From positions 1,792,001 through 1,856,000 of the forward strand of contig OY762209.1 in NCBI GenBank assembly GCA_963665295.1: a stretch of DNA of 64,000 nt, written 5' to 3'. Shown piece after piece: positions 16,798-25,422 of this stretch. Under the pieces are notes generated by a model. It saw nothing but the letters and a program-made list of their open reading frames with translations, did not search any database and was not told the origin of the DNA. A program made the translations under genes and the position numbers. This stretch comes from Syntrophorhabdaceae bacterium (GTDB lineage Bacteria > Desulfobacterota > Syntrophorhabdia > Syntrophorhabdales > Syntrophorhabdaceae). How positions within the stretch are numbered: position 1 is the first letter of the stretch; each line of letters opens with the position of its first letter.

Positions 16798-17199
16798 AAC
16801 TCCTCCTTTTGCCATTGTTCCGTTGCGGGACCTTTGCGTCGGCAATGGTCGCGCCCCCTTTTCTGCCTTATTTAAGCACAAGCGCCGAAAAGGTAACAGA
16901 CGCAGAATTCCAGTTTTTTCGTCTGACAGTTGCATCCTGAACGCAACTGTGCCCGTGGAATATGGGCCAAAGTGTATTTGTATTCACTCCTTAAGACGCG
17001 GTATAATGGGGCTGTCATGATGGAGAATTCCGGGGTGGAATCGAAAAATCCGTTGCTTTATGAAGATGTCGCCCTCAGAGTGACCGCGATGATCGACAAG
17101 TCAATTAGGTTAGACCGGTCGGCTCATGGTTGGTGTTTCAACTTGAAAACCAGCAGGGATTTGAGCATAATAGACTCAAATGGAGCAGGAGGGAGAGGC

Positions 17200-18693
17200 A
17201 TGATACGCGGAACTTCGAGTCTTACAGTCACGAGTGAACTATCATATTTGCCTGCAATACAGGCTTTCGCACGAGAGTTTGCAAGGGAAACAGGATTCGG
17301 CGGCAATGATCAGGAAATGATCGTTCTGGCCCTTGAGGAGGCTGTTACAAATGTAATCGAGCACGCCTTCGAGTCCGGGGAGCAGCCATTTCAGATTATC
17401 TTCAAGCCCTCGACAGGGGGTATCGAGATCATAGTTAAAGACATGGGCTTGCCTTACGATCTTAGCCTCCTCCCCAAATACGAAGCGCCTACGGACATTG
17501 AGGGGATGCCTTCCAGAGGCCTCGGATCTCTTATCATGGGGAAATGTGTTGACGAGGTGTTTCTCTGTAACCTGGGAAAGGGAGGGAAAGAACTGCATCT
17601 CGTTAAACGCCTACCGGTCAGGAGCGTCGTGGAACTGGTTGAGTGTCCGGAACCTGGCCCGTCTCGGAAACCCGTCGCCGACAAGGATGTGCCCGACTCG
17701 TCCTCTTCAGTTGAGTTGAGGTTGATGAAGTCCTCCGAAGCACTGGAAGTATCCAAGCTCTTCTATCGGGCATACGGGTATTCATACCTGTCGGACGTGA
17801 TGTACTACCCGGAAAGGCTTGCCGAGTACAATCGGGAAGGTCTCATCACTTCGATTGTCGCAGTATCTGAAGAAGGGGAAATTGTCGGACACCTGGCCAT
17901 GACCAGGGAAAAGCGTGACGATACGGTGGCTGAAGCGGGAAAAGGCGCGGTGAAACCAAGCTTCAGGGGCAAAGATATCTTCACGGGGATGCAAAGACTT
18001 CTTAACGACACAGCCAAAGCCATGGGAATCAGGGCCCTTTACGGGAGGGCGGTCACGGTTCATAGCGCTACACAGAAGATGGTGGAGAAGACGGGCTACA
18101 AATTGTGCGGGGTGGTTCTCGGTTACGCTCCGGCTGATATGGCGTTCAAGGGGATCCAGGAGCAACTCTCCCAGCGGGAAAGCCTGATATATTGTTTTCA
18201 GCCCGTCGTTGAGCTGCCGGTCACATCGGTGTTCCTCCCTTCCCATCACGAGGCCATCTTACGCCGGATATACTCGCATCTCGGCCTGACCAGGAATTTC
18301 CACACACCATTCGAAATAGTTCCGGTGGCGGACCTGTCGGTAATGGAAGTGAAGGTGTATTCCGAAATAAACAGTGCGGAGATCGTGGTTCGCCAATATG
18401 GCAAGGATGTTATAAGAGTCCTTCGGGACCACCTGAGAGACCTTTGCGCCAAAAGAATTGATCATTTTACTCTCTTCCTGGATTTGGGGGACCAGGCAAC
18501 GGCCCTCATGTGTGAAGAGATAGAAAGACTGGGATTCTTCATGGGCGGGATCATCCCTTGCCTTCACTTTGAAGACACGCTGATACTCCAATACCTGAAT
18601 AACCTGATTGTCGATCCTTCCAAGATAAAACTGCATTCCCCTATGGTAAAGGAAATTGTCGCCTACGTTAATGACCACATCGGCGGGAAATAG
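17200..18693 (+). CDS. RsbW-like HATPase (anti-sigma) fused to a GNAT acetyltransferase domain
   Basis: LALEEAVTNVIEHA, VKDMG, GLGSLIM; then VKPSFRGKDI GNAT motif; RBS GGAGGGAGAGG. Confidence 0.8.
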   Translation: MIRGTSSLTVTSELSYLPAIQAFAREFARETGFGGNDQEMIVLALEEAVTNVIEHAFESGEQPFQIIFKPSTGGIEIIVKDMGLPYDLSLLPKYEAPTDIEGMPSRGLGSLIMGKCVDEVFLCNLGKGGKELHLVKRLPVRSVVELVECPEPGPSRKPVADKDVPDSSSSVELRLMKSSEALEVSKLFYRAYGYSYLSDVMYYPERLAEYNREGLITSIVAVSEEGEIVGHLAMTREKRDDTVAEAGKGAVKPSFRGKDIFTGMQRLLNDTAKAMGIRALYGRAVTVHSATQKMVEKTGYKLCGVVLGYAPADMAFKGIQEQLSQRESLIYCFQPVVELPVTSVFLPSHHEAILRRIYSHLGLTRNFHTPFEIVPVADLSVMEVKVYSEINSAEIVVRQYGKDVIRVLRDHLRDLCAKRIDHFTLFLDLGDQATALMCEEIERLGFFMGGIIPCLHFEDTLILQYLNNLIVDPSKIKLHSPMVKEIVAYVNDHIGGK

Positions 18694-18887
18694 GGGACAG
18701 GGATGTCCATTAAACTATCAAATAAGCCATACTATAGCCTTTCTGTACCCCTAAGATGATGCACCGCCCCTGCGGCACCAATGCGAGCTTTTCTCGGCAT
18801 GAAGATATCAGGGGGAGCACGGATGTCAAATGAATGTGATTATTTAATGGCCGTCCCTAATGTACCCTAATGTACCCTAATGTACCC
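18693..18887 (-). mobile_element. Internally deleted RAYT derivative (MITE 1) with tandem 10-bp units
   Basis: 21-bp imperfect IRs 18700-18720 / 18837-18857 (17/21); encodes RAYT-like start MPRKARIGAAGAVHHL joined to a KGYSMAYLIV* 3' end; TAATGTACCC x3 at 18858-18887. Confidence 0.8.
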
Positions 18888-19413
18888 TTTTAATGGACGT
18901 TATATATTCCCATGCATTCACACCAGACTCCGGAGCATAGCAGAAAAAAAGGTTTTTTATCAGACTACCAAAAAATGAGACCCCCTGTTAAGATTGAAGT
19001 TCCACCAACAAACTCAACCAGGAGGTCTCAGATGAAACAAAAAGATGATAGCAGGTTGAAGGAATTTCGTCAATTGAAGCGCGAGATTCGCGGCTCCAGG
19101 GAGTATCTGGTGATCGGCATAGACATCGCGAAGGAGCGCCACCATGCCTTCTTCGGCATGCCCACAGGAAAGACCCTTTTGCGAAGGCTTGTATTCGATA
19201 ATACGAGAGAAGGCTTTGAAAGCCTCTGTCTCCATGCGGATACCCTTGCAAAACAGTACGATCTTAAGAAGGTCGTCTTCGGCATGGAGCCTACGGCAGA
19301 CTATCATAAACCTCTCGCTGAGTATCTCATAGGGCAGGGACATATGGTGAGTTAGGATGGATATAGTGGACACCATATGCGGTACAATATGGATACATAA
19401 CGGAGGTGTCCGA

Positions 19414-19722
19414 GTGGCAAAGATTCCCAGAGGAGTGTTTACAAAAGAGTTCAAAGAGGAAGCGGTAAGAATGGTGACGGAGGGCGGTCTCGGCATACCT
19501 GAGGTAGGCAGAAGACTGTCACTTGCGAAGTCAACCCTCGCTCGGTGGGTAGCCCAGGCAAAAAGGGGCGGCCTTGTGGTAACGCGAGGTCAGGCGACGG
19601 ACCAGGACATGGAAGTGGCCCGCCTGAAGCGTGAGATAGCTGAGCTCAAGATGGAGCGCGATATTTTAAAAAACGCGACCGCGTACTTTGCCAGAGAGTC
19701 GCTCAAAGGTACGCGATCGTGA
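19414..19722 (+). CDS. IS3 transposase OrfA
   Basis: FTKEFKEEAV HTH, LKMERDILK; AAAAAAC slippery site at 19668-19674. Confidence 0.9.
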   Translation: MAKIPRGVFTKEFKEEAVRMVTEGGLGIPEVGRRLSLAKSTLARWVAQAKRGGLVVTRGQATDQDMEVARLKREIAELKMERDILKNATAYFARESLKGTRS

Positions 19723-20579
19723 AAATCCTGCGACTCAAATATCCCCTTGCCCTTCTCTGTCAGGTACTCGAAGTATCTCGAAGCGGTTACTATGCATGGT
19801 TTAACCGCCCGCTTTCGCGACGCGCCCAGGAGGAAGAACGGCTGGAGATAGAGATAAAAGCTGCTCACAAAAGAACCCGGAAGACCTGCGGTCCCGAGAG
19901 ACTGCAAAAGGATCTTGCCGGGCATGGCGTAAAGGTGGGCATCTCAAGGATCAGACGGATAAGGAAGAGGCTCGGTATACGGTGTAAACAAGTGAAGAAG
20001 TACAAAACCACCACAGACTCGAATCATTCGCTCCCCGTGGCGGAGAACATCCTTGATCAGGATTTTACCGTGGAGGCTCCCGACGAGGTGTGGGTCAGCG
20101 ATATCACCTACATCCCTACCGATGAGGGCTGGCTCTACTGTGCCGCCCACAAGGACCTTTTTACCGGGGAGATCGTGGGCTACGCCCTGGGGGCGAGAAT
20201 GACCAGGGAGCTTGTGCTTAGGTCTCTCATAAGAGCAGTGGCAGTAAGAAAGCCACCGAAAGGCCTGATCCACCACTCGGATCGGGGAAGCCAGTACTGC
20301 TCTACTGAATATCAGAGACTACTCCTGCAGTTCGGCATGAAAGCTTCAATGAGCAGAAGGGGCAACTGCTACGACAACGCGCCCATGGAAAGCTTCTGGG
20401 GTACGTTGAAAAATGAGCTTATCCATCACCGTAATTACCATACGAGGGATGAGGCGACCGGGGAGATTACCGAGTATATAGAAGTCTTCTATAACCGGGA
20501 GAGGCGCCAGAAACGGCTCGACTATTTATCTCCTGCGGCATACGCAAGAAGATACTATGCCCAGAAAAGGGCGGCGTGA
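19719..20579 (+). CDS. IS3 transposase OrfB (DDE)
   Basis: WVSDITY, HHSDRGSQY, CYDNAPMESF. Confidence 0.95.
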   Translation: MKILRLKYPLALLCQVLEVSRSGYYAWFNRPLSRRAQEEERLEIEIKAAHKRTRKTCGPERLQKDLAGHGVKVGISRIRRIRKRLGIRCKQVKKYKTTTDSNHSLPVAENILDQDFTVEAPDEVWVSDITYIPTDEGWLYCAAHKDLFTGEIVGYALGARMTRELVLRSLIRAVAVRKPPKGLIHHSDRGSQYCSTEYQRLLLQFGMKASMSRRGNCYDNAPMESFWGTLKNELIHHRNYHTRDEATGEITEYIEVFYNRERRQKRLDYLSPAAYARRYYAQKRAA

Positions 20580-21582
20580 GAGACATTATTGGTGTCCACT
20601 ATTGACATCGGGGGTCATGGTGGCGCTTGTAGGAGGCGCTGCGGTAAAGAAGAACCGGGAGCTCCTCGATGGACGATGGGATAAACACGATACCAAGGAT
20701 GCCGCGAATGTGGCCGATCTCATTACCCAGGGGAAGTGCCTCTACTATGATCTTCCTTCTCCCGATATAAGAAGCCTAAGAAACCTCCTCTCTTTGTTGA
20801 GACGTCTTAAGAAACAGGAGCAGGGGTATAAGGTAAGGATCAGGAATCACCTTATCGCCCGTTTCTTCCCCGAGATGGATGAGCATTTCCATCACAGTGA
20901 AGGACCGGCCATTGTGAAATGGTGCCTCGATCCGAAAGAGATTACCGCCCTTCCTTTTGAAGAATTCTTTCGTATGGTCTCCCAGGGAAGAGAGAAACAG
21001 CGGATGAGGATACAAGCGATCCATAACAAGGCGGCATCCTCCATAGGCTGTGAGGTGACCCCGAGCGTCCCCTTCGAAGCACGGATGCTCCTTAAGGGGC
21101 TGGAGGAGATCCGTGCCATGGTGCAGGCAACGGACGGGGCAATTGCCAAAGCATGCGCCGGGCTTCCCGAGTACGACTGTCTCCTGAGCATCCCCGGGTT
21201 CGGCCCCCGCATCTCTGCAATGGTACTCGGAGCAATAGGCAATCCCTATAGATTCGAAAATGAGCGCCAGGTGCTTAAGATGGCGGGACTCGATCTCTCT
21301 AAGAACCAGAGCGGGAAGAGCGAGGGTATCCCCGTCATCTCCAAGAAAGGCAAGGCCGATCTCCGATATGGTCTCTACCAGGCGGCGCTTGTCGCCTCTA
21401 CTGCGAATCATCGCCTCATGGCGTACTTTACGGGAAAGCTCCATGGCAGGGAACGGGAGAAAGGGATCGCCACCAAGATGAGGGTGAAGCTCTCCGCAAA
21501 GATGCTGGTCATTGCATGGACCTTGATGAAGAAGAAGGAGATGTTTGATCCGGACATAATGAAGTGAAAGATTATTACCGGC

Positions 21583-21720
21583 GAGAGAGCCCGTGAATGG
21601 GCGTAGAGGCATATGACCTCGTGGGGGACAATAAAGGGCCTCTCACCAGAATCATGCAACCTGGATAAAGGATGATGGGTGGCCTTAGTGCACACCGGAT
21701 AATGATAACGCTGAGGTGCG
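21583..21720 (+). ncRNA. Predicted IS110 bridge RNA (target- and donor-binding loops)
   Basis: Stem-enclosed guides AATGGGCGT and GGGGGAC match target AATGGAC-GT-CCC; AAAGGATGA and ATAAC match donor ATAGGAT-GT-TAT. Confidence 0.7.
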
Positions 21721-21937
21721 GGTTCGCGGTACGGTGAGAATAACCGCCGGATAAGAAGGAAGAGAGGACGGGAGGGGTGTGTACTCGTGAAGGTCGTTAT
21801 GAATAAGGGGCTGATATTATTGGCAGTCTGTCGTATTGAAATTAGCTGTTGACAGGAGGATTATAGGATGTCCCTGATGTACCACGACCGGGATCATATC
21901 GAGAGTCGGCCGTAAGTTATGGAGGTCCCCTTCCCTC

Positions 21938-22321
21938 CTAGTAGTGGTCAGCTGAATTTTTCCCAAATTTCCCTTTGTTAGCCTCATAAAACAACTGGTA
22001 TTGAAATCTTCCTTTTGCATCGTAGACATTCATGTACACAAAAGAACTGTCGTCGCGCTTTTCATTATGTTGTTCGTCCCAAAAGAACGTCCTATAGATC
22101 TTAATTAGTTCATCTTCAGCGGGTATTGACCCTTTCTTGCATTGGACCGTGATATAAATCTCCGGTTCCAACGCAAAACTAAACCTATCCCCGTATTGTT
22201 TCTCCATATTATCCAATCGCCGGATATCTTCTGGAGTTGCACGGCTACAGGAAGTCGCAACGAGCAGTATCAACGTGAGCACCGCAATTCTTAGCATCAC
22301 CGGGAGATTCGTATAGAACAT
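21938..22321 (-). CDS. Hypothetical lipoprotein, candidate orphan immunity protein
   Basis: Lipobox VATSC, AT-rich, co-oriented with and downstream of the Rhs gene. Confidence 0.65.
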   Translation of the reverse strand: MFYTNLPVMLRIAVLTLILLVATSCSRATPEDIRRLDNMEKQYGDRFSFALEPEIYITVQCKKGSIPAEDELIKIYRTFFWDEQHNEKRDDSSFVYMNVYDAKGRFQYQLFYEANKGKFGKNSADHY

Positions 22322-22412
22322 GATAGCCTCGTTAGTAACCCTGATAGGGTTTTCTTGCCGCTGCGATACCTGCTTCGTTTGCGGTCAAATCACTCCACTG
22401 AAATGCCCAAGG

Positions 22413-22630
22413 GGGCACAGGGACGCCCATCAAACCATCAAATCATCCATGCTATAGCCATTCTCTCTCACCAGGGCTTCGCCTCTTGCGACTGCAATGC
22501 TTACTGCGGGCTGACCCATACCTAGCCTCCCGGCCACTGCCGTTGCGGTCATGTGAAGCCGTCTTACGGTATCAGGGAGGGGTACGGATGTCAAGGAAAG
22601 TTCATTAGCTAATGCCCCCCTAATGTCCCC
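22413..22630 (-). mobile_element. Internally deleted RAYT derivative (MITE 2)
   Basis: Ends resemble MITE 1; TTGACA promoter joined to TAVAGRLGMGQPAVSIAVARGEALVRENGYSM, homologous to the RAYT C-terminal HTH. Confidence 0.8.
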
Positions 22631-22646
22631 TCTATGGGTTTGTCGC

Positions 22647-23102
22647 CTATGGGTTCGCCGGTTCCATACGTTCCAACTTCAGTTCCTTTCTGCTTGGCAC
22701 TGGGGAAATTCTCTCTATATCTGTCAGACCGCCGGAGTATATGTCCGGGGCGCTCTTGGGTTTGGCCTTAAAGGTACCCTGCACCAATATATACTGTTCG
22801 TTGAATTTTCTTGCATCCGGAAATTTGCCAATATGGATTCTAACGGCATTCTTCATTAGAAGATATTCGAAATCTTCACGGTGAAAATACAAGGCATTGC
22901 TTTCGAAATCTAAGCAGAGATAACCAAAAGTAGTAACCTCTTTGCCGTGATAAACGTGAGGGTTCGCCATGAGATCAACCATTGATGCCAAATATCCAGT
23001 GGGAGGACTCTCGCCGTAAGGTAATGTGTTGAAGGACGCACAGGAAAAGAGAGACATTCCCACCCATGAAATGCAACCTACCAGAACCAGGAATCTTTTC
23101 AT
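22647..23102 (-). CDS. Hypothetical lipoprotein, candidate orphan immunity protein
   Basis: Lipobox LFSC, AT-rich, RBS GGAGAGG. Confidence 0.65.
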   Translation of the reverse strand: MKRFLVLVGCISWVGMSLFSCASFNTLPYGESPPTGYLASMVDLMANPHVYHGKEVTTFGYLCLDFESNALYFHREDFEYLLMKNAVRIHIGKFPDARKFNEQYILVQGTFKAKPKSAPDIYSGGLTDIERISPVPSRKELKLERMEPANP

Positions 23103-24240: not shown

Positions 24241-25212
24241 TCATAGTACATAGCCCTTCTCACGAGCAATCCTCTCCCCCCGTTCAACTGCGTATCCTAT
24301 CCCCGGCGGAGTCATGTTGAGAAATCGGGCGATCCGGGCCGCAGGAAATCGTCCGTGGAGATGAGCCCAGAAGCAGAAAAGACTTCGAGCTTCCACCACG
24401 GCAGACCTGCGGCTTCCACTGCCGAGACTCTCGAGGGTAATGCCATAGAGCTCGCGGACCCGTCCGGCGAGATAATCGAGGGTCGGACCTTCCGGGTCGG
24501 CCGTGATGCGGCGGGGTTCTCCGGTAAGCATCCTCTGAACAAAATCGCTGTCTCCCAGTATGCGTTCATCGCCTTTTACGCGTTGACCGGTCTTTTTCAC
24601 CGCTGCCCACGAACCATAACTTCTTATCAGTCCGCCGCCTACCAGGTCAGGCCTCTTCCCTCTGAGAAGTCGGTTCTCCATCGAGGAAAGGTATGCCTCT
24701 CGTGCAGTCTTCAGGCCGAAATAACGGAGCACGTAGTCCGTATCCTGCCATGGATGAAGGACCTCGCCCATGAGGACGGCATGACCGGAGTAAGGGTAGG
24801 TTGAAAGCCCCGCAAGGTCCTTGATGATTCCTGCCCTTATGGGATTGAGATGAATATATAAGACCAGTTCGGTGAGATAGGCGTCTTCCTGACAGAGAAT
24901 CGACTTGTATCGATTCTGAAAGAGTTGGCCATGGCGGTGATATTTTTTATTGAAGGTGACTGCATGACCCGTAAGAAGACGGGCCATGACTGTGTGGAGA
25001 GGAGTCTCGCCTGTTTTGAGCAAAAGGTGGGCGTGATTGCCGAGGAGCGCCCATGCGTAACAGGGAGTGTGGGTGTCGTCGAATATCTTCCCCATCCGCT
25101 CCGCAAAACGGTCTCTGTCACTATTATCACGGAAGATTAACCGTCGCTCGATGCCACGGACAATTATATGGTGGAGCACACCTTCGGCGTCCAGACGGGC
25201 ATGGCGCGGCAT
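24241..25212 (-). CDS. REP-associated tyrosine transposase (HUH Y1) with C-terminal HTH
   Basis: MPRHAR, HHIIVRG, NHAHLL (HUH), LFQNRYKS, YIHLNP, YPYSG. Confidence 0.92.
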   Translation of the reverse strand: MPRHARLDAEGVLHHIIVRGIERRLIFRDNSDRDRFAERMGKIFDDTHTPCYAWALLGNHAHLLLKTGETPLHTVMARLLTGHAVTFNKKYHRHGQLFQNRYKSILCQEDAYLTELVLYIHLNPIRAGIIKDLAGLSTYPYSGHAVLMGEVLHPWQDTDYVLRYFGLKTAREAYLSSMENRLLRGKRPDLVGGGLIRSYGSWAAVKKTGQRVKGDERILGDSDFVQRMLTGEPRRITADPEGPTLDYLAGRVRELYGITLESLGSGSRRSAVVEARSLFCFWAHLHGRFPAARIARFLNMTPPGIGYAVERGERIAREKGYVL

Positions 25213-25246: not shown

Positions 25247-25422
25247 GGGTTATTTACTTATTTACGGTCGTCCCCCAATGTTCCGGTGGAGAGGGGGTAA
25301 CAGTTTAGTCCTCTCGGAACTTTTTCCAGCAAAATATTATGTCTAATTTCCACAAAACCTTTGATTTCCTTGTTCCATGATGGTATTATAATAGGAGTAC
25401 TACTACTCAGTCGGAGGGTTCA

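Follow-up and report, generated by a model that had tools for sequence, protein, structure and literature searches.

We analyzed a 64,000-nt stretch of a Syntrophorhabdaceae bacterium genome (GenBank assembly GCA_963665295.1, contig OY762209.1, positions 1,792,001 to 1,856,000 of the forward strand), which we refer to in full as the window. The locus of interest is an insertion sequence (IS) of the IS110 family. An IS3-family element interrupts its recombinase gene, a conserved region with the layout of a bridge RNA follows the gene, and the sequences on its two sides together rebuild a terminal repeat of a small family of Y1-transposase elements (Table 1). We consider it very probable that the locus is a single, dead, RNA-guided (bridge-RNA) IS110-family insertion in the terminal repeat of a Y1 element that resembles the REP-associated tyrosine transposases (RAYT; REP, repetitive extragenic palindromic). 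The protein domains, the element ends, the RNA structure, four guides with their covariation, and the nature of the target are seen directly in the window and its relatives. The bridge RNAs of IS110 elements and the seekRNAs of IS1111 elements, with which we compare the locus below, were published in 2024 (Durrant et al., PMC11208160; Siddiquee et al., PMC11187229).

Table 1. Features of the IS110-family element and of its immediate surroundings. Positions are those of the window; A1 is the alignment of the window with its relatives described in the text.
Feature	Position	Strand	Size, match or basis
MITE-like deletion derivative of the ~1.02-kb RAYT-like Y1 element (MITE, miniature inverted-repeat transposable element)	18690-18870	.	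blastn against the genome
Tandem array CCCTAATGTA x3.4	18855-18888	+	Tandem Repeats Finder, 100% matches
Target-left AATGGAC, 7 nt	18892-18898	+	left target guide AATGGGC matches 6/7, the seventh a G.T wobble
Core GT, left copy	18899-18900	+	
IS110-family element, including the right core copy	18901-21871	+	2971 bp; junctions read in the sequence
TATATA, -10 half of predicted junction promoter	18901-18906	+	TATATAT kept at the left end of relatives
Recombinase gene, N piece, RuvC-like DEDD domain	19032-19347	+	Pfam PF01548 DEDD_Tnp_IS110, E 4.4e-11
IS3-family element splitting the recombinase gene	19348-20617	+	1270 bp; Pfam HTH_Tnp_1 and rve; NCBIfam transpos_IS3, E 3e-102
IS3 orfA	19357-19722	+	
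IS3 orfB	19719-20579	+	
Recombinase gene, C piece	20621-21567	+	Pfam PF02371 Transposase_20, E 1.9e-20, plus PF01548
Predicted bridge RNA gene, ~175 nt	~21577-21751	+	alignment A1, structure counts, closing-stem duplex test
Closing stem	21578-21583 with 21745-21750	+	duplex test
Target-loop stem GAGAGAGCCC / GGGCCTCTC	21583-21592 / 21636-21644	+	99.6% paired in relatives
Left target guide (LTG) AATGGGCGT, AATGGGC plus core GT	21596-21604	+	hypervariable segment in A1
Hairpin within target-binding loop (GAGGC...GACCTC)	21606-21620	+	5 pairs, 99.3% paired, 2 compensatory
Right target guide (RTG) GGGGGAC: GGGGG plus AC, complement of core GT and the following CCC(T)	21623-21629	+	
Left donor guide (LDG) AAAGGATG(A), against right end ATAGGATG(T)	21667-21675	+	second core base unmatched
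Hairpin within donor-binding loop	21678-21696	+	6 pairs, 97.7% paired, 4 compensatory
Right donor guide (RDG) ATAAC, complement of core GT plus TAT of the left end	21705-21709	+	5/5 (GTTAT)
Handshake base G, complement of target position 7	21710	+	
TTGACA, -35 half of predicted junction promoter	21849-21854	+	CTTGACAGG kept in relatives' right ends
Core GT, right copy	21870-21871	+	
Target-right CCCTGATGTACC	21872-21883	+	completes the rebuilt terminal repeat together with 18889-18900

The left junction reads TAATGGAC followed by GT (18891-18900), and the right junction ATAGGAT followed by GT (21863-21871) and then by the target-right sequence. The GT core at both junctions is the sole target duplication, and the same pattern is found in relatives. 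Subtraction of the IS3-family element and its 3-bp duplication leaves an IS110 element of 1698 bp, with non-coding ends of 131 nt on the left and 302 nt on the right. The recombinase gene starts at an ATG (19032) that is preceded at 6 nt by AGGAGG, runs in frame from its N piece into its C piece, and ends with a stop codon at 21565-21567, for a total of 420 codons. Across the two pieces, the protein has both the N-terminal DEDD domain (PF01548) and the C-terminal Tnp domain (PF02371). The NCBIfam model NF033542, "IS110 family RNA-guided transposase," matches the C piece (E 3e-35), with a score below the whole-protein cut-off because only this piece was scored, and the C-terminal domain matches the Protein Data Bank (PDB) chains of IS621 (E 1e-9) and ISCro4 (E 3e-8). 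If joined, the two ends of the element would read TTGACA, a 17-nt spacer (21855-21871), and TATATA.

We identified 78 related loci (L002-L079; one genome per species scanned) with 46-78% identity to the recombinase C piece, mostly in metagenome-assembled genomes labelled Desulfobacterota or "Deltaproteobacteria," Nitrospirota, Syntrophus, and Syntrophorhabdus. Intact recombinases of these relatives have 421-428 aa, versus the 420 codons of the window gene, and most of those that have no extra insert are 1.67-1.81 kb long. A protein database returned at least 5904 clusters at E<=1e-20, mostly of 420-424 aa and named only "transposase" or "IS110 family transposase." The relatives keep GT/TATATAT at the left and CTTGACAGG…TATAGGAT/GT at the right (the slash marks the junction), and divergence starts right outside these motifs. 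GT stands at the left junction in 52 of the 54 relatives with a listed left flank, the exceptions being L042 (GG/GT) and L031 (G/GA). Shared ends with divergence outside them mean that the junctions and the GT core of the original prediction, made from the letters of this DNA alone, were right; on re-reading 18600-22200 we found every coordinate and match that it gave in place. It had also proposed aligning the flanks of other copies, and the relatives, besides sharing their ends, have flanks that are tracked by the guides described below. We note that one sub-branch carries a passenger gene: in L018, a 323-aa open reading frame (ORF) with DUF3991 and Toprim_2 domains lies between the recombinase stop codon and the bridge RNA (L018:3580-4551). 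Element lengths of 2826-2872 bp suggest the same passenger in L008, L022, and L023, the ORF itself having been checked in L018.

The predicted bridge RNA lies directly 3' of the recombinase stop codon and comprises a closing stem, a target-binding arm, and a donor-binding arm. Across phyla, DNA identity is 70-80% over about 165 nt after the stop codon; conservation is lost over the following ~100 nt and returns in the final ~26 nt. Alignment A1 contains the window and 56 distinct relatives (57 sequences), drawn from 60 loci with the scaffold pattern after removal of L007, which is too short, and of L017, L020, and L057, which are identical to rows that were kept. A five-helix model of 26 pairs leaves 96.3% of the cells of A1 paired, compared with 89.8 +/- 0.3% in shuffles (0 of 500 reach the observed value), and both-side compensatory changes occur at 15 of the 26 pairs; when the partners are slid by 1-3 columns, pairing falls to 33-52%. 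In the target-loop hairpin, the GAGG and CCTC halves occupy 21606-21609 and 21617-21620. The strands of the closing stem form duplexes of -8.9 kcal/mol on average with their own partners, versus -5.2 +/- 0.33 with swapped ones (0 of 5000 reach the former). RNAalifold alone gave a partial structure, which we completed by a column-pair scan and the duplex test.

Two structural models emerged that differ only in the partner of CUCU (21640-21643), which is either the GAGA upstream or the GAGA downstream; the single compensatory event at the CUCU column (4 sequences) fits both. They can be reconciled if the RNA forms a three-way junction, in which 21584-21587 would pair with 21640-21643, and 21644-21647 with 21733-21736. 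The longer segment CUCUCACC can likewise pair either with GAGAG upstream or with GGUGAGA downstream (21584-21588, 21640-21647, 21733-21739), an alternative that could represent such a junction or a conformational switch. The two-loop RNA that had been proposed downstream of the recombinase is thus matched by a conserved, covarying scaffold in 57 sequences; covariation of the 3' non-coding region had itself been suggested as a check, and it yields 15 compensated pairs and a supported closing stem.

The scaffold is otherwise invariant, and its two hypervariable segments are exactly the ones that had been put forward as target guides, namely the LTG and the RTG of Table 1. Locus by locus, the LTG repeats the left flank plus GT, and the reverse complement of the RTG repeats GT plus the right flank; the LTG is in top-strand sense and hence would pair with the bottom strand. 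In the window, the LTG fits its flank at six of seven positions plus the wobble and the core, and the RTG fits the core plus three bases, plus a wobble. The agreement between each LTG and its own flank averages 5.28 of 7 over 43 distinct pairs, versus 3.42 +/- 0.17 when pairs are permuted (0 of 10,000 permutations reach it). For the RTG, the corresponding values are 3.67 of 5 over 49 distinct pairs versus 2.53 +/- 0.13 (again 0 of 10,000); on this side, only the first four bases beyond the core carry the signal. The agreement is clearly seen in L015 (GGCTTAGT and GTTCTCCAC), L038, L022, L052, L071, L051, and L031. L015 has the left guide TTGGCTTAGT beside the left flank CCGGCTTAGT, and its right guide, as the reverse complement, and its right flank both read GTTCTCCAC. 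Left guide and left flank are both AATAAGCGT in L038 and both TATGGACGT in L022, and the reverse complement of the right guide of L071 reads GTAGGTG, as does the right flank. The original prediction was to fall if guides did not covary with targets; they do covary.

Two sets of relatives depart from this guide layout. In a sub-branch of L002, L031, and L051, the left guide ends in GAT and not CGT (A1 columns 27-35 and 62-70). The right guide is followed by ACACT in L002 and L031, versus ACAAT in others, and in L031 the right donor guide is altered too (GATAT), with flanks that fit a core shifted to AT. This sub-branch may represent a natural change of core. L059, an element of 2018 bp, has two tandem target-loop-like modules (L059:2791 and L059:3000) with the left guides GCAAACAACGT and AGCACGAACGT.

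The donor guides lie in the second loop, where the original prediction had placed them. The segment AAAGGATGA at 21667-21675 holds the LDG, and 7 of its 8 programmed bases match the right end. In IS621, the LDG programs only the first core base, which explains the "mismatch" that had been recorded at the final base of AAAGGATGA; the base after G is A or C in the inspected alignment rows and T in none. Because the donor loop and the donor ends are nearly invariant, few tests are possible, and those that are possible show the loop and the element end changing together: the end ATAGAATGT occurs with the guide AAGGAATGA in L060 and L061, and the end ATAGCATGT with the guide AAGGCATGA in L013. The handshake base, which follows the RDG, complements target position 7 in 55 of 57 rows if G.U pairs are allowed, with L031 and L059 (divergent at this site) as the exceptions. 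It is G in all 44 rows with C at position 7 and T in all 5 rows with A; where position 7 is G, the handshake base is C once (L051), T four times (G.U), and G once (L031). We looked in the relatives for a two-base handshake like that of IS621, and only the first base fits.

We then asked what kind of sequence the guides address. The rebuilt empty site, TTTAATGGAC-GT-CCCTGATGTACC, reproduces a 21-bp terminal repeat, TTTAATGGACGTCCCTAATGT, with a single mismatch, and agrees at 20 of 22 positions with the neighboring repeat TAATGGCCGTCCCTAATGTACCC at 18845-18867 (an exact match). The 21-bp repeat bounds, inverted at both ends, two ~1.02-kb elements elsewhere in the genome (848934-849952 and 860433-861459), which have inverted terminal repeats of the type TTAATG(G/A)(A/G)CGTCCCT. 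Three deletion derivatives of ~170 bp have the repeat at their ends as well, among them the MITE at window 18690-18870. This MITE has retained both ends, whose inverted terminal repeat reads TTAATGG(A/C)C(G/A)TCCCT; by blastn, the two ends of the full elements align to its positions 60-173 and 8-55. The original prediction had likened the empty site to the neighboring MITE end; the target is indeed a Y1 terminal repeat, but the occupied site is a second, solo copy some 48 bp beyond the MITE's own end, and the CCCTAATGTA array stands between the two repeats.

The full elements encode ORFs of 312-316 aa that match Y1_Tnp (PF01797) at 38.2 bits, against a cut-off of 23. The same protein scores 54.4 bits with the NCBIfam RAYT model NF047646, below the cut-off of 80, and copies of the repeat are scarce, with 13 genomic sites that match the MITE at E<=1e-3, whereas REPs typically exceed 100 copies (PMC2817692). 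For these two reasons we call the family RAYT-like, which tempers the earlier statement that the element targets RAYT ends; the part concerning a Y1 repeat as the target stands, and it extends to relatives. We ran a profile of eight Y1 proteins against the 56 loci whose left flank extends for 300 nt or more. Up to 400 nt from the left end of the IS, it detected a RAYT-like ORF, whole or fragmentary, in 10 of them, at distances of 34-176 nt; on the right side, there was one match in 50 loci. In 8 of the 10 adjacent relatives, the match ends 34-65 nt from the IS left end, a geometry like that of the window. The far side of the Y1 gene bears an inverted copy of the rebuilt target in L041 (0 of 16 mismatches) and in L048 (7 of 26).

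Other RAYT-like sequences lie near the element. A second RAYT-like Y1 gene at window 24244-25212, on the minus strand, is 43.7% identical to the family targeted by the IS and has its own repeat variant, TTTACGGTCGTCCCCCAATGT, next to its start (25261-25281). A C-terminal RAYT-like fragment (70% identity over 61 aa) lies at 22413-22618, also on the minus strand, with the terminal repeat GATGGGCGTCCCTG; this repeat has G at position 6, as does the left guide of the window, and the occupied target is without that G.

A mechanism for the intact element can be proposed by analogy with IS621, ISEc11, and ISEc21 (PMC11208160; PMC11187229), from which the circle, the promoter, the transcript, and the strand exchange are all taken. 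The element would leave as a circle, and the joined ends would create the promoter TTGACA-17-TATATA, both halves of which are kept in relatives. From this promoter, a single transcript would cover both the recombinase gene and the bridge RNA. The RNA and a tetramer of the recombinase would then bring donor and target together, with strand exchange at GT.

Several observations weigh against reading the locus as a bridge-RNA element. The copy is single and broken, so its activity cannot be read from this genome. Folding the single sequence gave results no better than shuffles (z -0.06 and -1.33), which is uninformative; the match above chance comes from the guide-flank covariation of the relatives and not from this copy alone. 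The shuffle and permutation controls keep column make-up, not phylogeny, and the significance they return is somewhat overstated. Poor matches occur, at 3/7 or less in 4 of the 43 left pairs and at 2/5 or less in 4 of the 49 right pairs, and the second handshake base and the donor-side match (7/9; 5 nt) are weak. The left ends of relatives were set by a motif rule (GTTATATAT, at most 1 mismatch), by which a few loci may be misplaced. Rfam 15 gave no match in 18000-23000 at E<=1, which is not evidence against an RNA, as the library may hold no model of this branch. A promoter scan returned 5 sites, versus 3.4 +/- 2.0 expected, none of them just 5' of the RNA in the linear form; the same scan found no terminator-like site.

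None of 8 listed sequencing runs is recorded as RNA, and the bridge RNA is predicted here from sequence, which leaves room for an account in which the conserved 3' region acts as DNA, through protein-binding subterminal sites, or as a 3' element of the mRNA, the likeness to the flanks being a by-product. The invariant part of the scaffold would fit a protein-binding site equally well. However, compensatory changes keep the five helices and the closing stem, and the variable segments lie ~240-275 nt inside the element and yet follow both outside flanks, in the strand senses of RNA-DNA pairing. We regard this account as extremely improbable. We likewise think it very improbable that the link to RAYT-like elements is incidental, that is, that the IS prefers a short palindromic motif (GGACGTCC) which happens to occur in their repeats. 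The window insertion does lie in a solo duplicated repeat instead of bordering a complete Y1 element, only 10 of 56 relatives have a RAYT-like ORF or ORF fragment detectable near the left end, and the genome has 7 unoccupied 13-mers that the guides could fit, of which 5 are ends of the targeted Y1 family and 2 are not. Against this stand the 34-65-nt spacing in 8 of the 10 adjacent relatives and the inverted target copies in L041 and L048. Moreover, the 5.5-Mb genome has only 5 Y1_Tnp matches, and we estimate, without a computed test, that chance adjacency would lie far below 1%.

The locus could also be an IS1111-type element with a short seekRNA in place of a two-loop bridge RNA, its ends being recognized via subterminal inverted repeats. 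A long non-coding region with the RNA downstream of the recombinase gene is indeed the arrangement of the IS1111 group (PMC11208160; PMC11187229), and by eye we see an imperfect subterminal inverted repeat (7/10, left TATATATTCC versus right GGATTATAGG). This repeat is weaker in relatives; the IS1111 group has subterminal inverted repeats of 7-17 bp. Several features argue the other way. The recombinase has ~420 aa, versus 330-350 aa for IS1111-family enzymes, and the bottom-strand guide precedes the top-strand guide, as in ISEc21 and IS621, an order opposite to that of IS1111 (PMC11187229). Changes in the element end are accompanied by changes in the donor loop. In BLASTP against IS4321 of R751, the C piece shows 25% identity over 125 aa and the N piece E 0.03. 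Neither IS4321 nor IS5075 is among the matches listed from plasmids (85 of 1044 records, E<=1e-5), where the nearest named match is ISRel25, at ~30%. We judge an IS1111-type element improbable; any placement in a subgroup, drawn from length, guide order, the IS4321 BLASTP result, and the names of plasmid matches, would be provisional.

Returning to the bridge-RNA reading, we compared the locus with IS621, the E. coli element with a 177-nt bridge RNA (PDB 8wt6). Both have a DEDD and Tnp recombinase and a two-loop RNA of ~175 nt in which the target loop precedes the donor loop. In both, the LTG consists of 7 nt plus the 2-nt core in top-strand sense and is followed by a hairpin and by an RTG complementary to the core and the right flank, the LDG leaves the second core base unmatched, the right donor guide is followed by a handshake base, and insertion is into a repeat tied to Y1/RAYT biology. 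The IS621 template, LLLLLLLCC / RRRRRCCHH / lllllllc, accordingly has an LTG of 7+2, two handshake bases after the RTG, and one core base in the LDG (PMC11208160). The differences are that the RNA here follows the gene in the right end, whereas that of IS621 precedes the gene; that the RNA here is closed at its termini by a covarying stem, which would give a three-way junction; that the recombinase has ~420 aa versus 326; and that the core is GT versus CT. In addition, the protein likeness is confined to the C-terminal domain (41 bits). The IS621 design tool, BridgeRNADesigner, accepts either CT or GT (PMC11208160), so a GT core is nothing special.

The position of the RNA also sets the locus apart from the IS110 group in the sense of Durrant 2024, in which the bridge RNA is in the left end, upstream of the gene, for "the vast majority," not all, of elements (PMC11208160); some IS110-type elements have a downstream non-coding region (PMC11187229). 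In this respect, it resembles the seekRNA elements of the IS1111 family (ISEc11, ISPa11, and ISKpn4), which have the guide RNA downstream of the transposase gene and in which, likewise, no promoter is seen besides the one formed by the circle (PMC11187229). In contrast, their top-strand guide is 5' of the bottom-strand guide and their enzymes have 330-350 aa, as noted above. The branch thus mixes traits, with the RNA location of IS1111 and the enzyme length and guide order of the IS110 type, along with a weak likeness to IS4321. Two rows of the Durrant tree table resemble the branch, and neither has an ISfinder name (PMC11208160). The preprint 10.1101/2024.06.21.599552 contained nothing relevant on RNA position.

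Fixed targets inside other mobile elements have precedents in the family. IS4321 and IS5075 reportedly insert into the terminal repeats of the Tn21 family, judging from the title of work by Partridge and Hall in 2003. ISEc21 inserts in an IS3-family transposase gene, and ISPa11 targets REP sequences (PMC11187229). The window element is like IS4321/IS5075 and ISEc21 in being an IS110/IS1111-family element with a fixed target inside another mobile element; unlike in those cases, the victim is a RAYT-like Y1 element, the habit is branch-wide, and the left guide varies with the variants of the Y1 repeat. The 2024 papers already describe 3'-encoded bridge or seek RNAs (the right-end RNA of the IS1111 group), REP targets, targets of one mobile element inside another, and junction promoters (PMC11208160; PMC11187229). 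The original prediction of a GT-core bridge system encoded downstream and directed at RAYT ends is therefore supported by the relatives in substance, with its novelty overstated: the locus belongs to an unnamed branch of a known kind with a variant layout.

The copy in the window is dead because the recombinase gene is split by the IS3-family element, and it is no longer self-mobile in this genome. A 3-bp TGG duplication surrounds the IS3 element (19345-19347 and 20618-20620), of which the genome has 4 identical copies, each with a 3-bp duplication. Contigs of other copies break at 19347/19348 and 20617. The contigs of 4 sequencing runs recover the assembly and the IS3 borders; none skips the IS3 or the IS110 element, and there was no excised or empty form. 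A DNA search and tblastn with the window pieces found no other copy of the IS110 element in its own 5.5-Mb genome. A Pfam Transposase_20 search of the genome returned a distant second IS110-family gene at 675406-675621 and a weak fragment at 1090134-1090256. The second gene, on the minus strand (L085:1430-3803), has a 303-aa ORF with Transposase_20 and is cut by the same IS3 element at genome 674140-675409 (L085:1641-2910). Two of the four identical IS3 copies, a small sample, thus sit in two different IS110-family recombinase genes, which may reflect a preferred target, the converse of the insertion of ISEc21 in IS3 genes. Upstream, a 587-aa ORF (16930-18693) stops just 5' of the left repeat of the MITE (18699-18712), so the nest of mobile elements begins directly after a gene end. 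For annotation, the value of our reading is that it explains this nest of three, IS3 inside IS110 inside a Y1-element repeat.

We also considered a broader reading, which we hold only tentatively and think somewhat doubtful: that the unnamed branch, with its at least 5904 protein clusters, is both a distinct third architecture and, as a branch, a hyperparasite of RAYT-like Y1 elements. The architecture may combine an IS110-type enzyme and guide order with an RNA behind the gene and a three-way junction. As a hyperparasite, the branch may diversify its left guide with the repeat of each Y1 subfamily, the core GT and the right guide remaining directed at the conserved ACGTCCCC. If this is true, insertion might disable the end of the Y1 element.

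The mechanism has been in print since 2024, and hence the locus adds no new principle. Its value is that of a natural experiment, in which dozens of relatives share one scaffold and donor and have varied target guides, each of which can be compared with the flanks of its own locus. The pairing rules obtained in this way comprise 7+2 left-side bases, the core with ~4 bases to its right, and a handshake of a single base. They apply to a branch without a named or tested member, mostly from anaerobic Desulfobacterota and Nitrospirota. The locus also adds the repeats immediately beside RAYT-like genes to the REP-type repeats in which the family is known to land.

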